Source: Podarcis cretensis | Taxonomy: Eukaryota | Length of the DNA: 64,000 bases | Assembly: GCA_951804945.1 (NCBI GenBank) | Contig: OX638151.1 | Span: 56,296,001-56,360,000, forward strand | Direction of reading: 5' to 3' | Part shown: in pieces, positions 2,965 through 62,705 of the stretch | How positions within the stretch are numbered: position 1 is the stretch's first letter | Layout: each line of letters opens with the position of its first letter | Made by a program: the position numbers and the translations under genes | The notes under the pieces: generated by a model | Database searches by the model: none | What the model was told of the DNA's origin: nothing | The model's input: only the letters and a program-made list of their open reading frames with translations

Positions 2965-4629
2965 TTTTTTTTTTTAATGATATTTATTAAGATTTTCCAT
3001 AAAATCTTTTCCCCAATAACATCTTTTCAGGACTTCCCCTCCCCTCCCCCTCCTGTATTCCAATTCTTACAAATAAACAAAAAAAAATTTCAACAAGTTC
3101 TTATCCCAAATTTAAACTTATTATCATTGACTCAATTTTAAAAATATTTTCCCATCCCCTAAAATCGACCTGTTCCCTTCCGCGAGTTCCCCCCTTTAAT
3201 ATGCAATACAGATTACAATAGAAGAAAAATTAACAAAAAATAATAATTTTACGCCCTTTGGATTCCAATTTTCCCTCCCCCCTTTCCCGGTTGCGTTCCC
3301 AATGTTCCTCGACGTCTGATATCTTCCTGGAGTTCCCACATCTCTCTAAACCATAGTCCTTTCCCAGTCATCTTTAGTTTCGAATGTCCAATCTTGGAAG
3401 GAGTCTGTCTCAAAAAAGGCCCATTTCTTCCATCTAGATTTTTATATCTAGGGGTGAAAGCTCCAATTTTATTCCTTTAAACCTGTCAAATCTGGATGTC
3501 CCAAATGTTCCCACTTCCAACTTTGTCCAGTTCTTATTATTTTTGTTGTTCTTGTTGATCTCACTCCTCCTTTTCTTTTTCTTTTTCCCTGCTCTCCTGC
3601 ACAAATGTTCCAATTCCAAAAGCTTCTAATTCCTCTGCAGAGGCTTGTTATTCAAGAACAAAACATTACGTCAAGTCCTTTTCATTCTTCAATAGATAAA
3701 TCTATTGTCTCCTTTAGTGCGTAGACCTCTGTAGACAAAATAGTGTTCCATTTCTGCAGTTTCCCAGGAGATAGAAAGTTCTGGTCAAATTCCACGCCAA
3801 CAATACTTGTAATGTCCCTCGGCTCCTCTAAGTGGATTGCAATAACTAAATTCCCTTCCAGATCACGTCCACCAGTCAAAATAACTTGTTATTCCTTGTT
3901 TGTAACAATTTGTATCCAATTTATAACAAATGTAACCGGCAAAGTCCTCGTAACAAAGATCTCTATTTTATTCTTCCGCTTTGACAGCTCTTTGACAGCT
4001 GTCAAAACCTCTATTTCTCTTCTCCCGGCGCTCTCACAAATCGCTCCCAGGGTTCCGGGGGGGGGGGTGGTTGCTTTTTAATTCAATTCCACCTTTCTCC
4101 TCCAGCTCAGTCTTATGATTTTCCCTCGCGAAGTTAATAACTTTGTCAAAATAGGGTTGCACTCGATCTTAGTTGTCAAATCCTTTGCTTTAACTCTTCT
4201 ACAACAGGGGGGGGCTGACTTCCTTTTTGCGCCTCCCCCGCTCGCTCCGAATTTTTTAAAAAAAATTTATCCCCCTTTTTAGTCCAGGTTCCGATTACTC
4301 ACGGGTTATTCTTTTAAGTCCAGATTTTCAATAGAAGAAGTCAGCGCTCTCCGTCGAATGGCATGCGGCTTCGCTCGGCAGGGGAAGCGAAGGACTCAAA
4401 GCACCACTACCCCCCTGTCACCCGCTCCGCAGCCTTTAAAAAGGCTCCTTCGCGGGTCGGGGGGCGCAAAAGGTGCCAGCCGAGTCACCATGTCCATGGG
4501 TTTCAGCGCCCATGGTTTTTGAGGGTCCCCGCGTCGCCGGTGCGGTAGGACCCAACCCCTGCCGAGCAGGCTCCCTCTGGAGCTCAGAGGGAGTCCGCCA
4601 TTCGGCGATGGCGCCAACCCGGAAGTCCC
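2965..4629 (-). mobile_element. Full-length non-autonomous L1-type (HAL1-like) retroposon, copy A, with decayed ORF
   Basis: Perfect 17-bp TSD GCCTTCATTCTATTAAT (2948-2964 / 4630-4646). Minus-strand AATAAA (2983-2988) followed by poly(A). 5' end GGGACTTCCGGGTTGGCGCCAT. CpG-rich leader homologous to 10522-10854. No RT or EN motifs seen. Confidence 0.85.
3290..3804 (-). pseudogene. Frameshifted remnant of the ORF that is intact in copy B
   Basis: Manual frame-joining gives NLTRTFYLLG(fs)KLQKWNTILSTEVYALKETIDLSIEE, EELEAFGIGTFVQ and ELQEDIRR. These match copy B ALNRTVYLLGKLHKQIDVMATNIDILGTKVGISIE, EEIGASGAFGLGRTVKQ and ELRTLDIRS. The 3' boundary is approximate. Confidence 0.7.
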
Positions 4630-4858
4630 GCCTTCATTCTATTAATAAAGCCACATAACACTGCTGACTCAACACAATCCTAGAATCTATTTCACATATA
4701 CTACTACCAATCCAGGATTCCCCATCCTAATGCCTGTACAACTTATTGCTGTATATTTGTTGTTGTTGTTGCTGCTTTGTCTGAATGCATTACTTTTGCA
4801 TTTGTTTGCTTAATTTCAATGTGTGAGTTTCAGCCCCATTTTCATTTTGAATTTTCTA

Positions 4859-5090
4859 CAGTGGTACCGTGGGTTACGAACTTAATTCGTTCTGGAGGTC
4901 CGTTATGAACATGAAACTGTTCTTAACCTGGGGCACGCTTTCGCTAATGGGCCTCCTGCTGCCACTGCGCTGCCGGCGCACGATTTCCGTTCTTATCCTG
5001 GGGCAAAGTTCTCAACCCAAGGTAAGTATGTGCGGGTTAGTGGAGATTGTAACTCAAAGTGTTTGTAACCCAAAGCGTTTGTAACCACTG
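4859..5090 (+). mobile_element. Tigger-like MITE (same family as 18525, 57949, 62377)
   Basis: TA-CAGTGGTACC...CCACTG-TA, with shared internal sequence TTAATTCGTTCTGGAGGTCCGTT...GCTAATGGGCCTCCTGCTGCC. Confidence 0.85.
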
Positions 5091-8222: not shown

Positions 8223-8679
8223 TACAGAATGGGTTTATCAGTTTCCTTAGCCCCTTTTCGGAAGCAGACTATTGACACGCACGGGCTGCTCTAAACTAGA
8301 TTTCAGTGTCATGCTTGACTGGTGTTCACCACTTCTCCAGCCACAGTTCTACTTCTGCATATGAGGACAACTTCCATCGCCAACATCCAGAGGCACATAT
8401 CTAACTATATGCCAACCATACAAAAGCTGTAGTATGTTAAACTGAATTGTTGCATGTTCAGATATGTAATTTTATACATGGTGGGAGCAGACATCATCTA
8501 ACACACGAGAAAACTGTGGCTAAAGAAGCAGGCATCTAATGTAGGCCTTAGTAAGCATTTTAGTTACTTTTAAAATATTTTATTTTAATGAAGTAACCGA
8601 GTCTTCCCCAACCTGGTATCCTCCAGAGGTTTTGGATTCTCAGCTTTCAACAGCCTCCATCAGCATGGCCAATGGTCTA

Positions 8680-10854
8680 TTTATTTATTTTTTAAAGATT
8701 TTTATTAAAATTTTAAAGGTTACATAAGTCACAACAAAAAAACACCCAATTAACCCCCCAAAAAAGCAATACATAAAAACAAGTCACATCAAAAGAAAAA
8801 GATAAAAAATGGAAAACAGACAAAAAACAAGCAAAAAAATTGCATAAAATCCAGAGAAAAAGAAAAAAAAGAAAAAACAACAAATCAAACCTTTACATAA
8901 CTTTCCTTCTTTAACTTATTTCCTTGACCTCCTCACACCTCCCCTCTTTGTATTCTGATTCAGTTAGATATTCCAGCAAATCCTTCATCCTTGTTTTTAT
9001 CCTAATAATTTATCTTAATATACTGTAATTTTAAATTCTCTTCTTTCACCAATTAATCGTCCATTTTTACTTTATTTAATCTTATTTCTCATTAAAACTA
9101 ATATATTGAACTTAATCTCTTAAGACATTTCCCCTAGGGTCATAAAAATTTCATTCCACAATTTTTCCATTTCTCATTATTATTATTATTTTTTAAAAAA
9201 TTCCTTATATACACTTTAAATTCCCAATTTCTTTCCTCCGTCTCCCCTCCCCAGCCCCTGCCCTCAGTTCCATCAACCTCCCAGCGTCCATCAACCTGGA
9301 GATCTGATATCCAAGGTTCTTAACTCTTCTTCATTTCCCTTCTGCCGATCTTCTTGATAAACTTTGGTGCTAAAAAGCAGATCTCGGGGGAGCTCCATCC
9401 CAACGATGGTTATATTCTTTCTTGACAAGTCTGCCAAGTTTCCATAATTAAAGCTAGGGCCCATAAAATATTCCAAACCTTGTTTCACAGTTCTTCCAAG
9501 TCCAAAGGCCCCCGAAGCTCCAATCTCCTCCTGGCTCAAATTCATATTCCAAAAGTCATTTGATCCCTGCATAAAGGGATCTCTCCACTTTTCCTTTTCC
9601 AGATCAGGCCAGGCACCCAACTTCAAAAACTGGCTTCTCCTAATTACAGTCATATGAGGCCTCAAGTTGTAATCCTCCATTTGCCTCTTTAGGGTTAAAG
9701 CTCCCCCATATTTTGCTTTATATTCAACAACAGCAACAACAGCAACTTTCTCCTTCTCTAATTCATCGATTTGTTCAGTTAAGAAAGGTTCTTGTGCCGG
9801 GTTCTTGTCGACTTCTATGCTGATGCCCACTTTTGTTCCCAAGATATCAATATTAGTAGCCATGACATCTATCTGTTTATGCAGCTTTCCCAGCAGATAA
9901 ACTGTCCTATTCAGAGCAGACGCTACTTCTTCCTTTACCGACATTCTTAAGAAATTCAAGGTCAAAACTAGTTTCTCACAGTCCTTATCTTCAGAGTAAT
10001 TTCGCAGCTGCATACTTGTAACAATGTCCCAAAACTCCCTCTAGAGGGAAGCAGTCTCAATTTGTATCAATCCTTTCCAGCACAATTCCAAAAGTAAATT
10101 AATAACAGTTCCCAGTTACTTTTTCTTCTTTTTAAGTGCAGAAGCAGACAATAGAAACAATGTCTTTCTTTTAAAGCTAGCTGTCAAATTAATGCCAACT
10201 GTCAAATTAAAGCTAGCTGTCAAGTTAAAGCTAGCTGTCAAATTGTCCTGTTTACCGTCGATGGACTTTTTGCAAACCGTTCCCAGGTTCAGAGACGTAA
10301 TGCTTCAATCTTTAATTTTCCACCTTCTCCTGCAAGTTCACTTGGTCAGAATTGATAGTTTCAATCAGTGGAGTTTTAATCCTTTACGCGAGACTTTCCA
10401 AAACCTTAGTTAGTAACTACTTTGCTTCAGTCTATTTACAGAAAGGGAAGGTGGACTTCCTGTTTAGACCTTCCCCGTTCGGTGCCAAATTAAATTATTT
10501 AAAAGCTCAATTTCGCGTTCTACTCACGGGTTGTTGTTTAGAATCCAATTGTCCACAGGAAAAAAGTCAGCGCTCTCCGACAGCGGCAATGCGGCTTCGC
10601 TCCGTGAAATAAGCGGTCAATTCAAAGCACCGCGCCTCTCACCCCACATCGCTCCGGATTCCCGGTACCGGGTCTCCCCACGAGTAGGTGGGCGCAGAAG
10701 GTGCCAGCCGAATCCCAGGTTCACAGACTTCTCCCGTCTGTGATTTCTAAGGATCTCCGCCATCGCCGTGGCGGACAGACCCTGTTTTTCATGGAGCCGG
10801 TTCCTCCCGATCAGAGGAGCTCCGCCATTGCCGGAGGCGCTAACCCGGAAGTCC
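8680..10854 (-). mobile_element. Full-length non-autonomous L1-type (HAL1-like) retroposon, copy B, with intact ORF
   Basis: Perfect 19-bp TSD CAGCATGGCCAATGGTCTA (8661-8679 / 10855-10873). Minus-strand AATAAA (8701-8706) and A-rich tail. 5' end GGACTTCCGGGTTAGCGCC. About 840-nt leader, one 240-aa ORF, about 610-nt U-rich 3'UTR, no RT. Confidence 0.88.
9291..10013 (-). CDS. 240-aa retroposon-encoded protein, possibly a divergent or truncated L1 ORF1p derivative
   Basis: ATG-to-TGA ORF inside a TSD-bounded element, homologous to the decayed frame in copy A and preceded by 633 nt with no ATG. SRKNITIVGM weakly resembles the ORF1p RRM-start motif (R.N[IL]R[IL].G[LV]PE). Confidence 0.6.
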   Translation of the reverse strand: MQLRNYSEDKDCEKLVLTLNFLRMSVKEEVASALNRTVYLLGKLHKQIDVMATNIDILGTKVGISIEVDKNPAQEPFLTEQIDELEKEKVAVVAVVEYKAKYGGALTLKRQMEDYNLRPHMTVIRRSQFLKLGAWPDLEKEKWRDPFMQGSNDFWNMNLSQEEIGASGAFGLGRTVKQGLEYFMGPSFNYGNLADLSRKNITIVGMELPRDLLFSTKVYQEDRQKGNEEELRTLDIRSPG

Positions 10855-11214
10855 CAGCATGGCCAATGGTCTAGAATAGGAGGGATTCTTTTTCATAGCA
10901 AGTGGTCACCAGCTTGGAGAAGGCTAGTGTAACCATCTGGAAAGGTTAGCATAACTATTCACAGGCAAGTTCCACAAGACCTAGTCAAAAACACAATACA
11001 AAGTATTGTGTTACAAAACACCTCACCCTATTCAAAATAATGGTCTCTGTCGGGCCAAAATTGGTTCTGTATCAACTGGAGGTAGCCAATTTGGAAATAG
11101 CATTGGGTAATTTCACAGAACACATGCAAGTAGGTCTGTGCAACTGGTCTGGCCGGATCCCGAACCAAATCAGACAGACCAGGGAAGCCCTGGCTCCCCC
11201 CAGGCTGTCAATGG

Positions 11215-15880: not shown

Positions 15881-18524
15881 AGTTATGAAAAACAGAGGAG
15901 ACTATCTGGAGTTTCCACACTGACAACTTACAAAATGGATGAATATACAATAGCCAATACTATACAGATTGGGTGGGGATTAACCTACCGCCAACCATCC
16001 CAATCAGGGCATATGCTGTGTTTGGTTGCATTTTGCCTGGATATTGTTGGTAAGAAGATCTTGGCGAGATCAGACCAAAGGCCTGTAGTAAAGCATTCTG
16101 TTCTCACAGTGGCCAACCAGACATCCATATCACCCATCAACAAGACGCGAGCACAATAGTAGTCTGCCACTCAAGTTCCTCAGCAACTAGAATTCAGGGT
16201 CTTGTGTCCTGCCTCATGAGGCCTAGCAGCTATCTTTCTAGAGATCCTTACTACCCTTTAGGAATTTTTAAGTATGGCTACAGTATTTTGCTTTATACAA
16301 TTAAATCTCTGGAAATGATAGTAACATTTTAATTTTATTAGCAAATGGAAAATGCGTGGGTGACAACACAAAATATACAAGTTTACTCCAAAATGTTTTC
16401 TATATTTTTGCATACCACAGTAATGTTTTGCTGTAGTCAGCCAAAAACTCAGAAATCTGTTTTCAAGCAACAGCTACAGCTGATTAACAAGGAATTTCAT
16501 TTGCACCCTATCACACTGTACAAATTAATTTATTTTCTCTTCTTTTTTGAAGAATATCTGTTGAATTCATACAGTGCTTCTTCAAAACTGGTTGCTTTTC
16601 TCCTTCGAAAAACACATAAGAAAATGCATACCTTTTAAAAAATTAAGGCATTACAGTATGATTTTAAATAGATACCCTTGGTTTTCTAAGCGTTGTCATC
16701 AAACTCAGCCACTACACTTACAAAGGGAATAAAAGCTTAGCTTATTGTTACAAAAAATAGACCATAATAAAGGTACAACTGAGCAACCAGCAGCCAGAAA
16801 CTATTACTCCAAACAAACAAAATAGCCTCTCAAACTTCTCTCTTTACAGTTCTTTTTCACAGCATCCAAATCAGCAGCTTATCTTTGTCAGTGAATTATT
16901 CTTTCCTCTGCCAGGCAGGAGAGCTACTTGTCTGTGTATACTGCCTGTGTGTTATCTATATATGCATTCCATTTGAATCCAATTTCCTTGCATTACCTCT
17001 GCCCAGGTCAGGGATGAATGGCTGTCAAATTCCCTCAGGAATAAAAAGAAAAACCCTTTCTTCCTGAGGCAGCAAGTTTCAATTCACAGAGCACATGGCT
17101 AATCTACATATGTGAAGGTCACAGCACTTCAGTCAAGGAGGTTAAGAATGGAACAGCTCATGTAAGGGGCTGTCTTAAACATCTTGGCATGGCGCCCAAC
17201 AACTGAGATTGTTGAAAAGCAATAGATAGCTTCTGGCAGCACCAAGAGTAAAAATATTTTGATCATGTGATGCCATGCAAGCAAACCACTTTGCTTCATG
17301 TGAGAAACTTTTACAGACACTAATACATACCACATTTTGAATCAACTCCAGGCACCAGCCTCCCCTCCCCCATGCTTAGTAACTGAGCTGAGGGGGGGGG
17401 GAATAGAAACACTAAAATGACTTCAGTGGAGGCTGATAATTTCCCAAGTTAAAAAGAAATTAATCTTACAGCAAACCCAGGGATATAAATAACAGTTAAC
17501 TATAAACATCACTACAAATATCACCCTAACGGAACTCAAACTGTTTGTGCCACTGAAGTCAATTATCTTCATTTATTTAAAGGGACTGCAAAATAAAATT
17601 AACTCTGTCCACCATAATAATTCCTCATTGTATGAACTCTGCTGAAGTTCTCAGCTCTAATGCCAGATACATTTCATTTTCATATTGTACAGTTAAGGCT
17701 TGCAGTTTCACATACAAATTAGCTTGCACAGCCTGCTGCTTCCATGAAATATGCAAGTGGTCACTTTTAGTGTTTGTTCTCCACACCCAGACTGGAAAAA
17801 TCTATATGCTTGGTTGTCCAGGTGCCTAAAAATTTGATGCTGGTGCATAAGGAATATTTTTACACCACCATTATCCCCTTGCAGGGTTTTTATTTTGCTG
17901 AGTAGGAAAGAATGAAAAGAACCCTAGCTGGGAGGGGATGCTGGTAGTTATAAGGATCACACATTAAATGGAATAGGAATACATTAATTAGACAAAACAG
18001 CACATTTCAAGTCCAAGACATAGGAAACAAAGCCAGAAAATTCTGAAAATGCAGGTCACCAAAAACCTTCTATTTCATTTGAAAATTAAGGGAATGGTAA
18101 CTACATCAGGTGTTTTCTCAGCACCACAGTTATAAATAAAACCTAACTACCTATTCAACTGAAGAAAACTGTTTTACAAGGAACTGAAGGTAAGAAATCA
18201 GCACCAAGTTTACTGGCCCAGCTACTGTATGCTTAGTACCGGGCACAAATCATGATTGCACCTTATCATAAACCATGCTATTAACCCAATATTGAAAGTG
18301 TATTATTACAACACTGAAAGCACATCTCCTGAATTTGGATGCTATACCAAACTGCGAAGAGTCCAGTCTCCCAAATACTCCTTTTTTCTAGCCTATCTTT
18401 TCACCTCTCACAATATGCAATTACATTGATTAGCAATGAACTCCTACACATGCCTACTCAGGAGGAAGTCCCTTTGAGTCTCTGGATAGAGGGTTGCATT
18501 TACCTTGTTGGATCACATCTTGTA

Positions 18525-18739
18525 CAGTGGAACCTCGGGTTAAGAACTTAATTTGTTCTGGACGTCCGTTCTTAACCTGAAACTGTTCTTAACCTGAAGT
18601 ACCACTTTAGCTAATGGGGCCTTCCGCTGCTACCATGTGATTTCTGTTCTCATCTTGAAGCAAAGTTCTTAACCCGAGGTACTATTTCTGGGTTAGCGGA
18701 GTCTGTAACCTGAAGCATCAGAAACCCGAGGTACCACTG
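18525..18739 (+). mobile_element. Tigger-like MITE
   Basis: TA-CAGTGGAACCTCGGGTT ... AACCCGAGGTACCACTG-TA. Confidence 0.88.
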
Positions 18740-19004
18740 TATTTATTTGCTATAAATTGGGACAGATTTGTTCAACTGACCACTTCTTCTTGAGAGGACA
18801 AAAGTCCAGCAATGGTGACAAAACAATCTTTATATTTTCCAAAACATGAGATGCTGGTACGCATGCTCCCAGGTTTTTCTGACAGTTTTCCACAATCCTC
18901 TTTAAACTATTGAGGTGAGGCATAAAAGCAATTTTGGAAAATGGTATAAAGCATTCTACATTGCAATTCTGTGTGTATATACTCAACAAATATATACCAC
19001 AGTC

Positions 19005-24800: not shown

Positions 24801-27546
24801 TTATTATTTTTTGCCTTCATTACATTGTTATTTTAAAAGAACTACCAGTTTACCTCCATTATCTTCTTAATTACATTTATCAGTTGGAAAGATGTTAAAT
24901 TGTAATAAAATGGGGGGGGGGGGAAATACTAATGATCAATGTTCATCACAAATACTATGTAAAGTATCAAAGAAAAGAATGTTGCCAGAATATGTATTAT
25001 AAATCACATCCTACATAATAGTACCAAACAGATATTTGCTACTACAAGCAGGATGTGAACAAGTTAAGTGCAAACTATGTTCATTCCAAGATTCATAAGG
25101 ACATTATGATTTTGTTCTCATTCCAATAAATAATAAATAACTGTAACACCTATTGGGGCTAAATAAGACACAACAGTAACACGCATCTACAATCCTCCTT
25201 GCTATGCCTTTTCTACCTATTAAAGCTATATGTTTTAAATAGTCTATTGTTTAAAACAAAGGAGACAAAGCAAATCTTTTAAAATTGATTATGAGATTAC
25301 ACATACACATCTTCATTACCTAATGGTTTCAACTAACCCTTTTGTCTCAGAAAATTCAAAAGAGTAAAAGATTAACTCACTAAATTCTTACTTCCCCGTA
25401 AAGGAAAAAAAAAGGAAGAGAAACAAAAACATTAGAGAAACACACTGTAGACAATAGACAAATATGTTTTCAGTCTGTTCAAGGTTCAAATTATTTTTCT
25501 CAGGTTAACCCATCAGTTACTACTGCAGTCACTGTCTACTCCAGGACATAATCATTTTAAAATGTCTTTTACTCTGAAACCAAGCTTTGAGAGTCCCCAA
25601 AGACTGTATGTGAGAATTTATTTCTTCTACCACTGTTCCTGAAAGCATATTCAAAGATTTAACAGTCCATAATAACAGCATCTTGTTAAGGATGGAAAAG
25701 GTCCCCAATAAAACTTAAATATATTGTTACTCCTTTAACATAATTCACTTCCTTAAAAATCAAAGCATAAGCTTGTATTTTATTTTTTATATCAACAGAA
25801 CTAAATGAAGCATGATGCCTGCTGTTTCTAATCAATGAAATCCAAATGCAAAACAGATTTTTAAAAAATATCTATGGTTTTCTGGATTTTTAAAAAATAA
25901 TTTTAAACAAAAAAAGTGACAACATTATATAGCCTTGGTTAATACAAGAGGTCACATATCTAAAGATATTGGAGACACAAACCTCATAACAAGTACACAA
26001 ATAAAGCTAATGCCACTAAATATATATTGCATTAAAAATAAATAATGTATAATACTATGCAGAATGAGTATGAATGTAGAATTCAGTCAAACAAATGCAG
26101 ATTACAGCATAGATTTTCCACAAGATGTTCTACTACAATTACACTTGTTTAAAAAAGCCCTAATGGTTTAAATAAAAAGCAATTGTTAAAAGATTTATCC
26201 ATGTCATCAAAATAAAGAAAATCTTCAGCGTTGATTAACAAGAAAACTACACATAAATTTAAACAGTGAAGATCCAATGATCACCTAAAACATTCTTTTT
26301 TAAAAAAAGATTGTCTTTTTAACATAACAGTCCCTTGCTTGCTGAATCCTTCTTAACCTCAACTATCAAAAGATGCCTGCCAATTATTTCAGCTTCTTCT
26401 AAGAATGCGTAACCTTGCATCTGTGAGCAAAAGTGCTCAGTTATTATTTGTGGCAAGAATTTTTGTGACTGTACTGCTCAGCAATTCTATTTACATCAGC
26501 AATGCTAAATGCCCAATGGTGAGAGAGGAGCCAATCAGATGGCAGATTAGATGTCAACTCAGAGGCAGCTGTCTGGAGACTATTACAGCCAGTTTACCTC
26601 CACAATTCAAATTCCAAACCTTGCAAAAGAGATCAAGTCACTCTTTAGGCTCAGACTGCCGAGCAAGAAACATCAAGAGTTCTGAGTTATTTCCTATGGT
26701 TTTAAAGGTGGCAAAAAGACAACTTTTTACGAACATCGTCCAGACATGATCTGATGCCTACTGAATTGGCAATTCACAGCCTATAACTGATCAGAAATAT
26801 TGTGTAGCCTCCAGAAACACTAACTGTTGATCTCTTGCAATACTCACGCCTTTTTTGTTAGATTCTCCCCCATCAACCAACGAAGCGTAAAGTTTGCCCG
26901 TAAGGGGAGAGCAAACACAGGGAATATCTAATTATAACATTCCACATATTTTTAAACTATTTTTATATTGGTTGTGAGGACATGAGAAACATGCCAAAAG
27001 AGAAAGTCATTTGAACAACCAGGATGTGAAGCTCTTTATACTACTGTGGAGCATAGATACAACATATTTAAACTGTTTTTGCTCAGTTTCAATATAAAAC
27101 TCTATCCAAGCAACACTATTTTCTAATAACCCAAACGAGAAATAGATCAAGACAGGAAAGGAAAGAGTGTGATTTTGCAAGCTCTGCTGGTTATGGCATT
27201 GGTTCCTCCCTTTCCCATTCCAAAGTGATTTTCCTCTGGGCCTTGTGTGTTCGGATTTCTAATAAGTCTAGAGTAGGAGCACTGGGTGGGGTACAGTGGG
27301 TCTTGTGTATTGTTCAACTATATAAATGAAATGGTCTGATTTTTAGGAGGAAAGTCATCCCCCCTCCCCATGATGTCTTTCTGACCTAATCAGAGTCAGA
27401 CACTGTGCATTATCCAACCCTGTGAGGGAGGGCAGCAAGGAGTTGAGATGGAGTAGGAGAAAAGTAAATTAGAAAGAAAGTAAAGACAGACACACACAGG
27501 CAACTGAAACAACACACTGCTTGCTCTTTTGGGTTCTTATTGTTAC

Positions 27547-29307
27547 CTGGCTCCTGCTGATGGTCTGTCCAGTGTTTCCAGGGCTCATAGCCGGGTGATT
27601 TCTTTGTTGTGCTGCTGCCCAGGCTGGGTTTGCACCTCCATACTGGGAACCCATGTCCTTGCCCATGCCTGCTGCTGCTGCCTGCTGGCTTCCCGGAGCG
27701 GCTGCTGCTGCTGCTACTCCCTGAGCCTGCTGCTGCTGCGATGGGGCAGCAGTGGGGTTGGCATAATCGGGGTAGCCAGTGCCATAGCTCCTCATCATGG
27801 GGCTGGGGGAAGTGAGCAGCTGGTTCAAGGTTGGGGTGGCCCCAGACGGGTGTTGGTTTTGCCCGGAGAACCTTTGGAAGCCCGCAGACCCCGACGCCTT
27901 GCCGAGGCTGCCTCCTCCTCCGCCCGGGCCCAGCATCATACCCTGCTGGTGCTGCCTGGGGGAGTTCAGCACCCCGAAGGCAGACGAGGAGCCCCCATAG
28001 CCGCCGCCGCCTCCTCCTCCTCCTCCTCCTCCCGCCGCTGCTGCTGCTGCTGCTGCAGCCGCCGCTCCTGCTCCTCCTCCAGCGTTGCTGCCGCCGCCAG
28101 GCCGGCCGTAGGCGCCCGCGTAGTGGTTGTACTGGCTGTTGGCGTAGCCTTCGTGCGAGTTGGGCAGGGGGTCCATGCTGTTGGGGGCCGCCGCGGGGTG
28201 CATTAGCCCCATCCCGGGGCTTTGTTGTCCGCCATGTTGATCAAAGCAAGGCCCAGCCCGGCTCGCTGAGGAGGCGCCTCCGCTGCTGCTGCTGCTGCCG
28301 CCGCCAGCGCTGCCGTAATAGCTATTAAACTCCGAGACACCCACCGCTGAGGGCCCGCCGCCGCCGCCGCCTCCTCCAGCGCCTCCGCCGCTGCCCGCTC
28401 CCTGAGGTGGTGGCGGCGGCTGCCCGCTCAAAGGTCCCAAGCCGGGGTGGTCGTAGCGGCTGCCGAGGTGCTGCTCGCCCATTTTGTCCGGCGGCGTCGC
28501 CGCCTCTTCGTCGCCGCCGCCGCCGCCTTTATTCGCCAAGGGCTGGGACTGTGGCCGGCTCTGGGGCTCGGCCTGTCCCCCTAAGCCGCTGTCTTTTCCT
28601 CCATGTTGCTGCTCCATGTCTGCGCTGCTGGGCTGAGCAGCGCCGCCACCGCCGCCGCCGTTGTTGTTGCTGCCGCCGCCGCAGCCGCCGTTGTTGTTAT
28701 TCTGCATCGGATGGTGCTGAGGCGGCGGCTGTTGCTGGAATTGATTTAGCTGTTGGTGTGGAAGTGCATGGTGGTGGTGGTGGTGGTGGTGAGCATGGGG
28801 GTGCTGGGCATGGAGGTGAGCTGGGTGCTGGTGCTGGGCATGGGGGTGGTGGGAAGGTGCGGCGGTGGCGGCGGCGGCAGGGTGATCGCCTCCGACGCTT
28901 TTCAACTTGTGGTTGGGGAGCAGCCCTGTCTCCATAGCCGGGGTAGAAGAAGAAGAGGAGGAGGAAGGTAAACCCGACGAGCTTCCAGCTTCTTTCAGAA
29001 CCGATTCCGAGGAAGAACCGCTGTTGTTATTACCGGTGGCGGCGGCAGAAGTTGCATTATTGGCCATGTTCAGTTCATTATGGTGGTGGAGGAGATGGTG
29101 GTCTACATTATTCAAGCCGCCGCCGCCGCTGCTGCTGCTGCTGTTAGTCCCATCTACGACCCCCAAGAGGGAGCCCGGTCCAGCAGCTCCTGCGGTGCCT
29201 GCCACGGGACCCCCAGAGTTGAGATCCTGGCTTAAGTTGCCCGGCAAACTCGGGGTTTTGCCTTTCTTGTTCGCACCCGCCGGAGCCGCTGCTACTTGCG
29301 CGGCCAT
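27547..29307 (-). CDS. ARID1B: AT-rich interactive domain-containing protein 1B (BAF250B), first coding exon (587 codons; possible in-frame ATG two codons upstream at 29313)
   Basis: Diagnostic ARID1B N-terminal peptides [77 protein letters not shown] and [15 protein letters not shown]...RSQ. The exon ends CAG|GTAACA (phase 0) where human exon 1 ends. Start context ATCATGG. The next exon is not in the window. Confidence 0.95.
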
Positions 29308-29490
29308 GATCATTGCAACATTGCAAGGAGGTGGGGGAGAGAAATCAATTAATTCCCCTCCAGCCTGGAAAAAAATGGGCAAAACAAATGGGGGTGGGGA
29401 GGGGGAAAACCCCCCAAAAGCCCCACAATTCAGGAAACGAACGATTTAACAAAAAAGCCTGCTGATCATTCCCTCCGCGCGCGCGCGCAC
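27800..29490. promoter_or_regulatory. CpG island over ARID1B exon 1
   Basis: Dense CpG and GCC/GCT/CCT triplet runs against an AT-rich, CpG-poor background; alternating (CG)n(CA)n tract at ~29476-29498. Confidence 0.8.
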
Positions 29491-35840: not shown

Positions 35841-35950
35841 CTAGAATCATAGAGTTGGAAGGAATCCTGAGGATCATCTAGTCCAACCCCCTGTAATACA
35901 GGAATATGTGGCTGCCCCTTATGGGGATCGAACCTGCAACCCTGGTGTTA
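35841..35950 (-). mobile_element. Short tRNA-head / CR1-tail SINE
   Basis: Reverse complement has B box GGTTCGATCCC followed by the CR1-like tail GGGTTGGACTAGATGATCCTCAGG..TTCCAACTCTATGATTCTA. A partial plus-strand copy lies at ~51870-51950. Confidence 0.7.
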
Positions 35951-55315: not shown

Positions 55316-57948
55316 CTCAGTGAAGTAGTAAAGACAAAGTGAAGATTTTGGATAACAAAGCTCCTTTAATTCTTCATTTTAGAGAGCAGGTGAGGGCTTA
55401 CAGATTAAGGTTGCGGTCCTGTGGTCTCTGGGAGGGCACCAATGGGGCCACAGAAGTGCCAAATTTCCCATTTTGAGGGGAGAAAGAGAAGCTCATCTTC
55501 AGAATAGGAGATCCCTCCTCCATGAGGTTGTGGAAAGGTCAGCTCTCCTCAAGCGTTGGAGAGGTCAGGGAGGAAACATTCCTAGGGAATGTATGGGTTG
55601 TGGACCTTAAGAGCTACCAACCTCCCATTTGCCTGACACACTCTTGGAATGGGATAGGTGGGGGGACAAACTACACCAGCCTTGGAGGTGACAGAGCTTG
55701 TTTTCTTTAACGTAAGGGAAACTGTTTCAAAAACAAAAAACCGGAATATGAGAAATGGTTCATCTGCCTTTGGCTCTACCTCCGTCTGTCCTCTTGGATT
55801 GCTCCACTCATGTTGTCAATAATGTGAGCCCACATCTGAACTGAGAAGTGCTGTAGCCCAGATCCATAAGGTTTGCCACCTCAGCGAGAACTAAGCTATC
55901 TATCTAAAAATGTTCTGCAAGAAAAGTAAAAACATTTTTTTAACCTTTGTTCCCTTGCATTAAGTTTGGCTGTTGAGATCAGAGTGAAGACTTTGGATCA
56001 CAAAGCTCCTATTATTCTTCACACTATAGAAAAAAAAAAGATTTGCACTTATGCAAATAGTTACAATACTTTGAAATAATGTTCTGCTAGCTAAATGTAT
56101 TTTTCAATGTACTATTTAATTATGGATATGCTTGATTTAACACTTAGTATCAAAATGCTAAAAATCTCAAAAGTGCTAAAGTCTACAGGAAGCACAATAT
56201 TGCTGTATTGTGTGCAAAAGCATTTTAAAGATTCTGATTCTGGGAGAGCTTTATTGAAAACAGTACTTACTTGTCTATGGGGCCTAGTGCTATCCTAGTG
56301 TGATACAGGAGAGAGAGGGGGGGGGAGAGAGATGGCCCTTTTGACACATAAACCCTGGGCACAAGCTAGCTAAAATTATACACATTCAAGTCCCATTGAT
56401 TTCAAAGAGAGGTTTTTGCATTTTTAAGTTGATTGACTTAAAAAATTAATCAACTGTAACGGCCCCAGTTCATACATCTGGCATGAATAGCAGGTTCAGG
56501 ATGTTTTAAAATGAATTTACAAATAAGCTTTTTGGCTAAAAAGAAACAATACCAGAAATAAAGATGGATGCTTAAAAGTTATATTGTGTTCCCTATCTTC
56601 AGATCATATTACATGTCCACCATGTTTACTTCTATACCTTTAACTCCATATTTTTACTCTTTCACCCCTGCCTCTGTAATTTATTTGCTTCGTCTGATAT
56701 ATTCTGGCACACATTCAAATAACCTAGTAGCTAAGTGAAATAGCATATACTTTCTACATTGCATTAACAGGAATTATTAAGTGGTATTACTGGGTGGTTT
56801 TTTTCCTTGCGCACATGCGCATGGGCACGCACAATGGGGGAGAGAGAAATATGTTATCACTTCTGTATTTGAAATAGTAGTTTCATTTTGTTTTGAGAAC
56901 TGCACATCTTTCATTCTTAGCTGGTAAGCTGACAAAACCAAAGCAACCTGGATAAAAATGAAGGGATTTCAACCACCGTGAAATACTGTGTGACATAACG
57001 GCCAACATAAAGCCATCATTCTCAATGTTTACATTGGTACTGATTCTTAACAGCATGACGTTAGCTCAACATAAAGCTATGCTTTTTCTAAAACAACTCA
57101 GGTACAAGGAGAGCCTTTAACAACCAATCATGTTCCAGGTCTATAAAGAATTACACTACCAATCCAAACTGACATGTACATTAAAGCTCACCTATGGGCA
57201 CCTTAAATTTTTACTCAGAGCCAGGGATTTACTCATCCCGAGAAACACAATAGTTGTTATGTACATATATCATTCCAGAAATCAATGGATGTTCCAAGTG
57301 TTACAGTTCCGTACATATCCAATTGTTTTACAATTAACCCAATATGACACCTAAAGAGAAAATTTAAATAAGGAAATTCACATCTCGCAGCGTAAATCAG
57401 CAGGATGAAAAAGCAAGCATTGACAATGCTTAACAATTTGGCTGCTAGTACAACAGCCTGTTTCTTTGAAGTTATTTATGTCTCTGTAGAGTTGCAGCAA
57501 AGGCTGATGTATGCAAAGCCATAGTACTTAATGCCAGAACTGACTAGCTGCCAGCATGTTAGGGAAACAGCATTGTGAAGAGGATGTCCAAGGAAACCCG
57601 GGAGCACAACTCTATGTATGTTCACTCAAAGGTAAGTCCCTCGGAGTTTGCTGACTCCCAGGTAAATGGGTAGTCTAAATAGTAGTATATTGATTGACAG
57701 AAGAACAAATAGAAAGTGCCTATTCACTCCTTAGCAATGCTTTACCCATCCCACCCCCTTTTGGCCTGGAGACACTTCTACAGCTGCATTGGATTGTACA
57801 ACCAGGTTCCACTTTAAAGTGGCTTCCCACATAGCAGCAGTAAGTAAGACAATGTGGTGATTCACTCAAAAAAAGCAAAACAAACCACAACCACTGATCT
57901 GCAACATGACAATGTGCAACTACTGCTGCTTTAGAATATTTCCCAATA

Positions 57949-58190
57949 CAGTGGTACCTTGAGTTACATTCGCTTCAGGTTACATATGCTTCAGGTTACA
58001 GACTCCGCTAACCCAGAAATAGTGCTTCAGGTTAAGAACTTTGCTTCAGGATGAGAACAGAAATTGTGCTCTGGCGGCGCGGTGGCAGCAGGAGGCCCCA
58101 TTAGCTAAAGTGGTGCTTCAGGTTAAGAACAGTTTCAGGTTAAGAACGGACCTCCGGGACGAATTAAGTACTTAACCCGAGGTACCACTG
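57949..58190 (-). mobile_element. Tigger-like MITE
   Basis: TA-flanked with CAGTGGTACC TIRs; close reverse complement of 62377-62618. Confidence 0.9.
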
Positions 58191-59298
58191 TACTTGATAG
58201 CTAAACATACATACATTGGTTCTGAGTTAAGTGAACAATAGGGGCACAGTACAGAGTGAGAGTTCTTAAAGGAAAGCAGCCTTCTGTGCCTGATGGCGTG
58301 CTTTGAGGGCTTGTCCATCACGCTTGCAAATGACATTTATTTATTTATTTAAAATTGTGAACAAGCTCCTGTCTTTTGTGTGTGCCCAGCTTGCAAGAGG
58401 TTATTGCCATCCTGAAACAAGTTATGGCGGTGAACTGGGAATTTGGCAGTCTGGTACTGGTACGGAAAGATTCCTCTTAATCACGAAATCACTTGATTCC
58501 AGGCCAAGCGTAATAAACAACAAACTCTTGCATTAACAAGTCAAGAACTAGTGTGGCCCAGTGGATACAATGTTATGGCCACTTTACACATTACATTTTT
58601 AGGGATACACCTAAAAGGGTTTATGTATGCTTTAAAACCGCAGGATGTGAATGCGCCAAACAAAAATTTGGAAACACATATATATCAGTCATTACTGGCT
58701 TCTTCTCTCTGAGTGTACACTTGACATCGTTCCCAGACCTGTCTCTGTGTAATGTGTGAAATGGCTCTTAAACATGTGCTCAAGCTGCATTTCAGCTGCA
58801 GTCTCAAAAGCACTTTGCAGGATTAAAAAAAAAAATCCACACAGAAATGACTTCTATGCAGGAACTATGAATCCTTCTTGTAGATCAAATGCGACAATTG
58901 CATTCATTAGGGTTTTGTTCCATGTCCTTGTGCTGGGACAGGGCTGGCACCAGGTTGACAAGGCCCTGAGCAATGTTCCTTCCAGTTCTTCTCCCCACCA
59001 AGCTCACCAGAGTACAGATGACACTGGCCAGTGGCAGGCAGCAAAGGAGGAAGGCAGCAGCACAGCTCCAGCTGCACTCCCTTGGCCCAGCATTGAAAAG
59101 AGAAGCACTACAGGGCAAGGCAGTTGCAGCCAGCATCACTAACATCCTCTTTCTTAAACCCAATTCCTGTAGGCATTCTCCCCAATCAGTACATGGAGGA
59201 TGGAACCAAAAGGTTATATTAGGTAGGATCTATGCATCTATGCCTTTAGGAACCATTTGGTTCATCTATTGTCCACACTGTCTGGCAACAACTCTAAA

Positions 59299-61393: not shown

Positions 61394-62376
61394 GAGGACG
61401 TTGAGTGCCTAGGAAATTGTTTGTCCCAGGGCTCTTTGCTGGGTTGCACACAACAGTATGTCAGTGACAAAAACCTCTTGACCATCATCATCATTATGTA
61501 CAACAGCACCAGGGAAAAAATTACATGTTCCAGGGCCTTTGTTGCATAGTGGGCCTGACATATCAACAACCATGGATTCGTGGAAGAATGTAGGCCTCAC
61601 AAAGAGGCCTTCCATTTGCAGCTGCCACAAATGCAGTTTGGATGAGGAAAGAGGCTGAGCTCATGAGTTTTGGGGTACACAGAGGAGTTGGGCCTGGGAG
61701 AGGTGTTTGAGCCTTCCTGGTGATGTCATTAGGAGCGGGACAGGTTTCCAAATACAGGTGGCGGAACAACGTGGCAGCTTGGTGGTTGGGCGGGGGGCTG
61801 CTCTCGTGCATACTTCACCATGCATTAGAAAATCTAGATAATAAGGATAGTTCATCCCACTACCAGCACAAGCCAGGCGATTTCTGATATAATCTTTCAT
61901 TCTATTATTCATCAATTAATATTTTTATATCACTTAATACACATGATCTCTCGTGCATGGTCTCTACACACCTTTACATCTGCTGAATGATTTATAATGA
62001 TTCCTCTGTGGGAAATCCCCACAATATGCCTAAAAATGATCCTGTGAATTGAAATTACTTTGTACTTAAGCAAAATTTTGCCAAAAGGCATCTTTATTGT
62101 TGGCAGGTCTATTATCATCTCATTTCTTCTGAATGTAGGCAGTAGACCATGCCTTTTGGTCTACTGGTAGGATTCACATCATCGTGTATACCAGACCCAA
62201 TTCAGCAAGGGCAAAGCCTCATTGAAAGCAGTCTTCCTTGTATGGATCCTGTTTCTGAATCCCTTACACAAGGATGGCAGCCCTACCAACACACTCCCTT
62301 TAATGGTTTCTATGGATGCTACTTTTCTAGAAAAGGAACCGAGACTCACCATGAATGCCTCCCTTGTTCTATTTTA

Positions 62377-62618
62377 CAGTGGTACCTCGGGTTAAGTACT
62401 TAATTGGTTCCGGAGGTCCGTACTTAACCTGAAACTGTTCTTAACCTGAAGCACCACTTTAGCTCATGGGGCCTCCTCCTGCTGCTGCGCCGCCAGAGCA
62501 CGATTTGTGTTCTCATCCTGAAGCAAAGTTCTTAACCTGAAGCACTATTTCTGGGTTAGCGGAGTCTGTAACCTGAAGTGTATGTAACCTGAAGTGTATG
62601 TTACCCAAGATACCACTG
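62377..62618 (+). mobile_element. Tigger-like MITE
   Basis: TA-CAGTGGTACCTCGGGTTAAG ... ATACCACTG-TA. Confidence 0.9.
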
Positions 62619-62705
62619 TAATGGCAATGGCTCCCACCTGAGAGGTTCCAGAACTGAGTTCCAGCTGAAAAAAGCCCTGGGCACAGTTATCTGTGCTGGA
62701 TTGGG

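Follow-up and report, generated by a model that had tools for sequence, protein, structure and literature searches.

How can a retroposon with a broken reading frame stand in a genome between pristine target site duplications (TSDs)? The question is raised by copy A, a 1665-bp element on the minus strand at positions 2965-4629 of the window, that is, of the whole 64,000-nucleotide stretch of Podarcis cretensis DNA (contig OX638151.1, assembly GCA_951804945.1) analysed here. The original prediction read it as a second, diverged subfamily of an RT-less retroposon also represented by copy B, a coding relative of 2175 bp on the same strand (8680-10854, with a 19-bp TSD at 8661-8679 and 10855-10873), and proposed that its source had lost coding capacity and still moved. 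We consider it very likely that copy A inserted recently and represents a non-coding, internally deleted L1 derivative in which a broken ORF1 is a property of the whole subfamily; it probably relied on its own L1 promoter and on proteins, ORF1p and ORF2p, made by intact L1s of this genome.

Anatomy and age of the insertion

Copy A, a full-length member of an ORF-less subfamily designated A1, is bounded by the perfect 17-bp TSD originally described (2948-2964 on its 3' side, 4630-4646 on its 5' side) and ends in the expected poly(A) tail, here of 11-12 nt (2965-2975, minus strand); the 12-T run at 2964-2975 has one base in common with the TSD. An AATAAA signal lies at 2983-2988. At the other end, a head of the form GGACTTCCGG..GGCGC..ATGGCGG (4595-4628, minus) is common to copy A and autonomous L1s and fits the 5' consensus of lizard clade-1 L1s. 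It belongs to a CpG-rich L1 5'UTR segment (4180-4629, minus) whose L1 similarity and CpG content point to a likely internal Pol II promoter; the first 300 nt have a GC content of 0.64 and 26 CpG. The first AUG opens a uORF of 5 codons here (4584-4601, minus); in most relatives this uORF has 32 or 38 codons. A short GACAGCTGTCAAA duplication is present at about 3975-4006.

The remainder is a dismantled coding region. The start site (3801-3809, minus) is dead, reading CAAGTATTG where coding relatives read CAAGAATG, and is followed by a short deletion common to the family. The vestige of a shortened ORF1 (3326-3805, minus) is broken by a frameshift (3754-3765), by two stops (3682-3684, 3652-3654) and by more indels downstream. 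It closes at 3326-3332 (minus) on the remnant, CCAGG, of a deletion junction between the tails of ORF1 and ORF2, placed as in relatives; beyond it, 2976-3325 (minus) corresponds to the decayed last ~45 codons of ORF2 and the L1 3'UTR with its AATAAA, parts that are clear in relatives. The longest frames in A copies reach about 77 codons, and the longest ATG frame in the ORF1 region of A1 is 37 aa. Upstream of the start, copy A keeps a remnant of a near-palindromic TAGAGG motif (3822-3830, minus) that precedes ORF1 in L1s and that every aligned short form also has. This motif, CCCTCTAGAGGG, occurs in the window at 3822-3830 and 10037-10048, in short forms, and in six of six L1s checked (L092, L101, L093, L103, L142 and L100, nt 820-910); it resembles a transcription-factor site, which may be akin to that of CTCF.

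The insertion site is empty in all four sequencing runs considered, which represent three samples from one study under one species label. In contigs from each run the far flank is joined straight to one TSD copy, the one at 4630-4646, which is single in the empty allele; one contig has 65 and 90 letters on either side. No contig from these four runs was placed over the filled copy A junction, a count to be read with the caveat that contigs can drop a minor allele. As the empty site exists in other samples, copy A is a recent and likely polymorphic insertion. For copy B, the 3' junction was found in run X8.

Both copies lie downstream of, and on the same strand as, a 637-codon frame rich in Gly, Ala, His and Gln within a CpG island (27469-29382, minus; no Pfam family and no name from the ESM Atlas), whose motifs we take to be those of ARID1B exon 1; A and B would therefore likely lie in the first intron of that gene, in sense orientation. 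The window further holds repeats of about 250 bp with terminal inverted CAGTGGTACC ends, likely MITEs, at 4854-5090, 18520-18741, 57940-58192 and 62372-62627, and repeats at 35843, 39505, 48645 and 54816 that bear what we presume to be a squamate retroposon end.

Descent from L1 through coding short forms

The head motif common to L1s and short forms has 1187 matches in the genome and none in the control. Sixty head-motif loci, taken from the first 100 listed and picked to cover the head types, comprised 20 L1s, 10 coding short forms, 26 non-coding copies and 4 unassigned. ORF1 and ORF2 are both intact in 9 of the 20 sampled L1s, with an ORF2 of 1244-1245 aa that carries endonuclease and RT (2 of 2 tested). 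The predicted model of L1 ORF1 matches human ORF1p structures (E 1e-8), the ten best matches, all at E<=0.001, being human ORF1p. At the sequence level, Pfam does not recognise the lizard L1 ORF1s, a genome search with PF02994 had no match anywhere, and a PDB search with the L1 ORF1 profile gave only coiled-coil chance matches among 57.

The 5' 350-470 nt of copy A align with all nine L1s compared, at 63-71% and from base 2 onwards. Alignment to L1 5'UTRs from base 2 would also speak against a SINE, with a tRNA, 7SL or 5S head and a Pol III promoter. Clade-1 L1s of lizards, as described in excerpts of PMC5381506, have the 5' consensus GACTTCCGG..ATGGCG and a long CpG-bearing 5'UTR conserved across families; copy A shares this 5' consensus and differs in having neither ORF, some 4.5 kb less. 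The ancestry of the 3' end was reached through relatives. Similarity of their ORF2 tail and 3'UTR to L1 extends down to E 1e-26 (L110, L096) and is E 1e-9 to 1e-11 in L136, L120 and L112; copy A's own 3' end matches L1 at E 7e-4, not above shuffles, so that its link to L1 needs these intermediates.

Copy A and copy B are 68% identical over 345 nt of leader (E 1.7e-17), as the leader similarity first noticed would imply. The ORF vestige also stands above shuffled controls at both levels: a profile built from 84 coding relatives scores the three frames of copy A at 14.5, 6.0 and 5.0 bits, compared with a best of 3.9 bits among 900 shuffled frames (715 scored), and with a DNA profile copy A reaches 28.9 and 16.0 bits, where the highest of 300 shuffles is 2.6. 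Against single proteins, z is 4.8 for the B protein (25 shuffles) and 11.6 for that of L108. Among the peptides initially used to align the two copies, the L[TN]RT[FV]YL/GKL..SIE match is real; the other two had been mis-paired, as DNA alignment sets GAFGLGR of B against GTFGTSR of A near 3500, not against AFGIGTFV, and DIRSPG of B against DVGTPG of A at about 3326-3342, not against DIR.

Profile alignment and blastp identify the 217-aa ORF of copy B (9291-9944, minus) as an internally deleted L1 ORF1. Short ORFs align with L1 ORF1 at an HH probability of 98.1 (E 1.3e-13), and the copy B ORF matches the full-length ORF1 of the classic half-L1 L238 (blastp E 4e-22). They start at an internal Met, residue 52 of ORF1, and are without 42 RRM and 17 CTD residues. 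The family start of B-type copies is the downstream ATG at 9944; the upstream ACAAGTATG start occurs in 1 of the 29 copies with that context. Copy A was rightly said to have lost its start, which is the dead site at 3801-3809, and the upstream ATG of copy B was the wrong anchor for it. An open frame of 150-225 aa ending in the terminal motif is found in 85 of 109 loci, mostly protein-search picks and hence biased to open frames, and in 7 of 10 coding short forms sampled by position.

Database searches with the short ORFs agree with an L1 origin. A profile search of 1.84 billion proteins returned 19 matches, all short-ORF relatives or ORF1-bearing proteins; the three named among ten looked up are Podarcis proteins containing L1 ORF1 sequence. 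A word-indexed protein search gave a single match, and the predicted fold, with a pLDDT of 42, was set aside. Pfam found no family in the copy B ORF at E<=10, none in L108 and one match, attributed to chance, in L132; a phage-like reading of the copy B ORF (ESM Atlas, clusters at 0.93) was likewise judged to be chance.

Several observations on these short forms may be recorded here. The last ten residues, RASD[IV]R[SN]PG before the stop (9291-9323 in copy B), are nearly fixed among the proteins P0002-P0018, while the middles are unalignable; the idea of a new or 2A-like peptide was dropped, its origin being the progenitor ORF1 tail plus the deletion junction. It may have been kept as a phosphorylation site, for an effect on termination or through a constraint on the RNA. 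P0015, a TRIM39-like protein of Podarcis muralis, ends in an L1 ORF1 RRM-CTD, possibly by fusion or as an annotation artefact. In many B-type copies the stretch matched by the query contains a single TAA, and a TAG is common to one group of them; much of this may sit upstream of the true start. L042, L056, L049 and L060 stop near codon 114-122, and further independent ORF losses are possible. The leader of copy B contains an 18-bp tandem repeat of 4.1 copies (10171-10244).

The genome thus presents a graded series: L1s of 6.2 kb; classic HAL1 (half-L1) elements of 2.5 kb with near-full ORF1; short forms of 1.8-2.2 kb with ORFs of 157-217 aa, copy B among them; and ORF-less A. Progenitor and HAL1 loci came from a genome search with the ORF1 of a profile-matched protein (88% match), of which 12 loci were read. 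The likely progenitor L1 family (L234-236) measures 6.2-6.3 kb where a TSD was found, with an ORF1 of 395-396 aa in two members, a broken ORF2 in all three and a mutual difference of 6.5%. Six of the 12 loci retain only codons 1201-1245 of ORF2. Classic half-L1s are 2.48-2.55 kb with TSD (L227, L228, L233), and their ORF1 is 341-342 aa in L237 and L238 and broken in others. At a CAG microhomology the deletion has fused the tails of ORF1 and ORF2, giving the RSPG-stop end, and the same junction is found in classic HAL1, L110, B, L108, L132, L136 and A.

In the ORF tree, short ORFs fall on one side of a branch separating them from the ORF1s (SH-aLRT 100); the non-coding copies group together in a single clade (99/97), with the coding subfamily of 157-174 aa as its sister (100/100). 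In the 5'UTR tree the progenitor family falls within the B-type group, and other L1s come between B and A. AU tests on this tree reject the short forms as one clade (p 0.0002) and the short forms plus the progenitor family (p 0.011), with a further test against a simple clade at p 0.015; either long-branch attraction or promoter exchange with L1 could explain the conflict. Because the 5'UTR tree rejects simple clades, the order of decay steps is taken from the ORF tree and the shared deletions. On that basis, a 6.2-kb L1 would have given rise to the classic HAL1 of 2.5 kb, with ORF1 minus its tail and the RT deleted; ORF1 would then have restarted at the internal Met and lost half of its RRM and a portion of its CTD (207-217 aa, copy B), before being reduced to 157-174 aa and finally, in the A lineage of 1.6-1.8 kb, losing its start and decaying in frame.

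The non-coding lineage and its mobilisation

Copy A is far from single-copy. Among 3785 candidates from a genome search, 40 were scored and 38 proved to be near-full-length matches at 94-100%; the A-lineage head has 857 exact genome matches and the start-less junction pattern 192, and only 9 were found for a 32-nt pattern from copy A's 3' end. All 25 sampled loci with the A-lineage head are non-coding. A TSD of at least 12 bp flanks 24 of 30 fetched A1 loci and 23 of 26 non-coding loci sampled by position; two of the A1 loci (L018 and L021) have common flanks and represent one insertion duplicated. In another A1 copy, L026, the 5' head is doubled, its first ~22 nt occurring twice. TSDs of A-type copies span 12-22 bp, a length like that of co-resident L1s, and L1-type TSDs flank members of the non-coding clade and of the coding ones beside it, in line with the proposal that both kinds have moved.

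The lesions are inherited. Of 32 close A1 copies, comprising the 30 fetched best scorers and 2 sampled by position, 30 have CAAGTATTG at the start site and none has ATG there; all 32 carry the frameshift (3754-3765) and each of the two stops (3682-3684, 3652-3654). Such common lesions mean that the A source element was already non-coding, bearing out both the shifts and stops first read in copy A and the suggestion that coding capacity was lost before movement; a frameshift shared across collected copies had been named as the sign of a non-coding mobile subfamily. Mean pairwise distance among the 32 is 1.9%, and an age estimate from it is biased young, since the 30 loci were chosen as best scorers against the window copy. 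The original prediction was right that A is a diverged relative of B and too narrow in speaking of one subfamily: A is a long-lived non-coding lineage of several subfamilies, up to ~27% from copy A, the farther ones also frame-broken, with pairwise distances of 1.2-3.0% within subfamilies. The first 300 nt are its best conserved part, subfamilies agreeing at 85-96% there and mostly at 64-85% beyond for the most distant ones. Two of the 26 position-sampled non-coding copies have a private ATG frame of 118-126 aa outside the ORF1 frame.

From this anatomy, the L1 ancestry, shared junction, lesions, TSDs and empty site, and the presence of intact L1s, all of them observed, we infer mobilisation in trans. 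Following established L1 biology, a Pol II transcript from the internal promoter would be polyadenylated at the AATAAA; L1 ORF2p would capture it via this poly(A), while ORF1p would come in trans, and the RNA would be integrated by target-primed reverse transcription. Owing to their own promoter and short length, new A copies would often be complete and able to act as new sources. The young intact L1s of the L093 group, 1.4% apart pairwise, are candidate drivers. In HeLa cells a HAL1-like reporter with an RNA-binding-dead ORF1 was immobile with ORF2p alone (PMC11260458, in excerpt); as that reporter requires working ORF1p, A by analogy probably takes ORF1p in trans, as the mechanism proposed here demands.

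That protein might instead come from the coding short forms, a B-type product packaging A RNA or linking it to L1 particles, so that both L1 and the cousins would be needed. We hold this to be improbable, if the best of the alternatives. Coding subfamilies are abundant, their frames have stayed open across a dS of ~1.1, and they retain the N-terminal coil, the part by which, in the passages of PMC5605252 cited here, truncated human ORF1p acts in trans; against this, the short protein is without 42 RRM and 17 CTD residues, and intact L1 ORF1p genes are present in the genome. Its amino-acid constraint is also weak. In 10 coding pairs, where indels are rare, 8 of 21 break the frame and each of these is compensated; in 7 pairs of non-coding subfamilies, where they are frequent, 60 of 76 do so (pairs not independent in either set). 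An omega of 0.65 fits 15 of the 84 short ORFs better than 1 (lnL -5106.75 vs -5121.88); for comparison, L1 ORF2 gives 0.05-0.07. Variable columns of the short ORF are spread over the codon positions without a difference (p 0.33), and a similar third-position excess occurs in the non-coding lineage (0.155/0.156/0.199, p 0.047), so that part of the omega signal may reflect composition or date from before the loss. These figures do not show strong selection on the short ORF at the protein level, and we make no claim of a conserved protein function.

It is less probable still that copy A itself codes, through a 32-38-aa peptide from its first AUG that aids mobilisation. A uORF of 32 or 38 codons is indeed present in 49 of 56 non-coding copies, but its shared variants, 8 synonymous and 19 non-synonymous, lack any third-position excess and thus show no codon constraint; its length varies (5-86 codons in coding forms, 5-27 in L1s), and it lies inside the GC-rich promoter, where stops are rare. 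Ribosome loading as such may still play a part. Least credible of all is that A copies arrived dead from a coding master that escaped notice, or that they decayed where they had inserted: 56 non-coding copies were read out of at least 857 and a master may lie outside the assembly, but start loss, frameshift and stops recur in 30-32 of 32 copies that differ by just 1.9%, and subfamilies up to 27% away are broken too.

Class and significance

Copy A, read as a non-coding element moved by intact L1s, is not an autonomous L1, since intact ORF1 and ORF2 are both missing, nor a retroposon of unknown kind, its L1 5' end and ORF1 ancestry marking it instead as an internally deleted LINE-1. HAL1 is the known mammalian half-L1 (PMC5753468, in excerpt). 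As portrayed in the cited passages of PMC5753468 and PMC5786205, it resembles A in being non-autonomous, with an L1 5'UTR, an ORF1-derived region, an L1 3' end and no EN/RT. That description fits L237, L238 and the B type, the coding relatives of A differing in a much reduced ORF1 and a lizard host. A has the L1-clade origin, is without ORF2 (EN/RT) except for its decayed tail, and forms its own amplified family with TSD and poly(A); HAL1, however, is defined by encoding ORF1p, which L237, L238 and, in reduced form, B do. A1 encodes none, and A is therefore not a HAL1 member. Bao and Jurka (2010) reportedly called the HAL1 ORF1p essential.

A 2018 survey, in the passages cited here (PMC5786205), splits bipartite LINEs into an ORF1-present class (HAL1, HeT-A, Ag-Sponge) and an ORF-absent class reported from RTE, Ingi, Vingi and R2 only; an ORF-absent CR1 case followed in 2019 (PMC6740152, in part). 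Copy A is like the SIDEs described in these sources (RIME, NARTc, Bov-A, Vingi-N, R2 SIDE and Persaeus; PMC5786205, PMC6740152) in combining 5' and 3' LINE parts by internal deletion, with no ORF, likely Pol II transcription and movement by a partner LINE. It retains its parent's 5' end, has no protein-coding ORF, and is joined by internal deletion to the parental 3' end, as traced through relatives given the weak direct match. Unlike SIDEs, it is L1-derived and was reached by stepwise decay of an ORF1-bearing form, the dead ORF being kept as filler. Persaeus-type elements are shorter than A (1.7 kb).

Copy A is also comparable to SVA and LAVA of apes, non-coding, polyadenylated RNAs of kilobase size moved by L1, of which SVA needs both ORF1p and ORF2p (PMC11260458, in excerpt). 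It differs from SVA in being wholly L1-derived, with the L1 promoter kept. SVA is a composite of unrelated parts.

In the open-literature listings searched, neither a HAL1 from a lizard nor an L1 derivative lacking ORFs turned up; families of this kind are often recorded solely in Repbase, Dfam, subscription journals or supplements. Tentatively, and with rather more doubt than confidence, A may be the first ORF-less bipartite retroposon of the L1 clade, born as a half-L1 eroded step by step, and all the stages (L1, full-ORF1 HAL1, cut-down ORF1, no ORF) would be alive in one genome. If so, ORF1p in cis would be dispensable for a HAL1 lineage; the conserved L1 leader would itself hold a signal that wins L1 proteins in trans; and the open frame of the coding cousins would serve mainly for translation or coiled-coil docking, not RNA binding. 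A joins two classes, ORF1-present and ORF-absent bipartite LINEs, that are separate in the cited part of the 2018 survey, and places an ORF-less bipartite LINE in the L1 clade, where that part lists none (PMC5786205). How RNAs made by Pol II, among them HAL1, SVA and mRNAs, overcome the cis-preference of L1 is called unresolved in the excerpted text of PMC11260458; a natural series in which one promoter is followed by a full, a cut-down or no ORF1 opens that question to direct testing. The A family is, moreover, a live source of insertion polymorphism, usable as markers.
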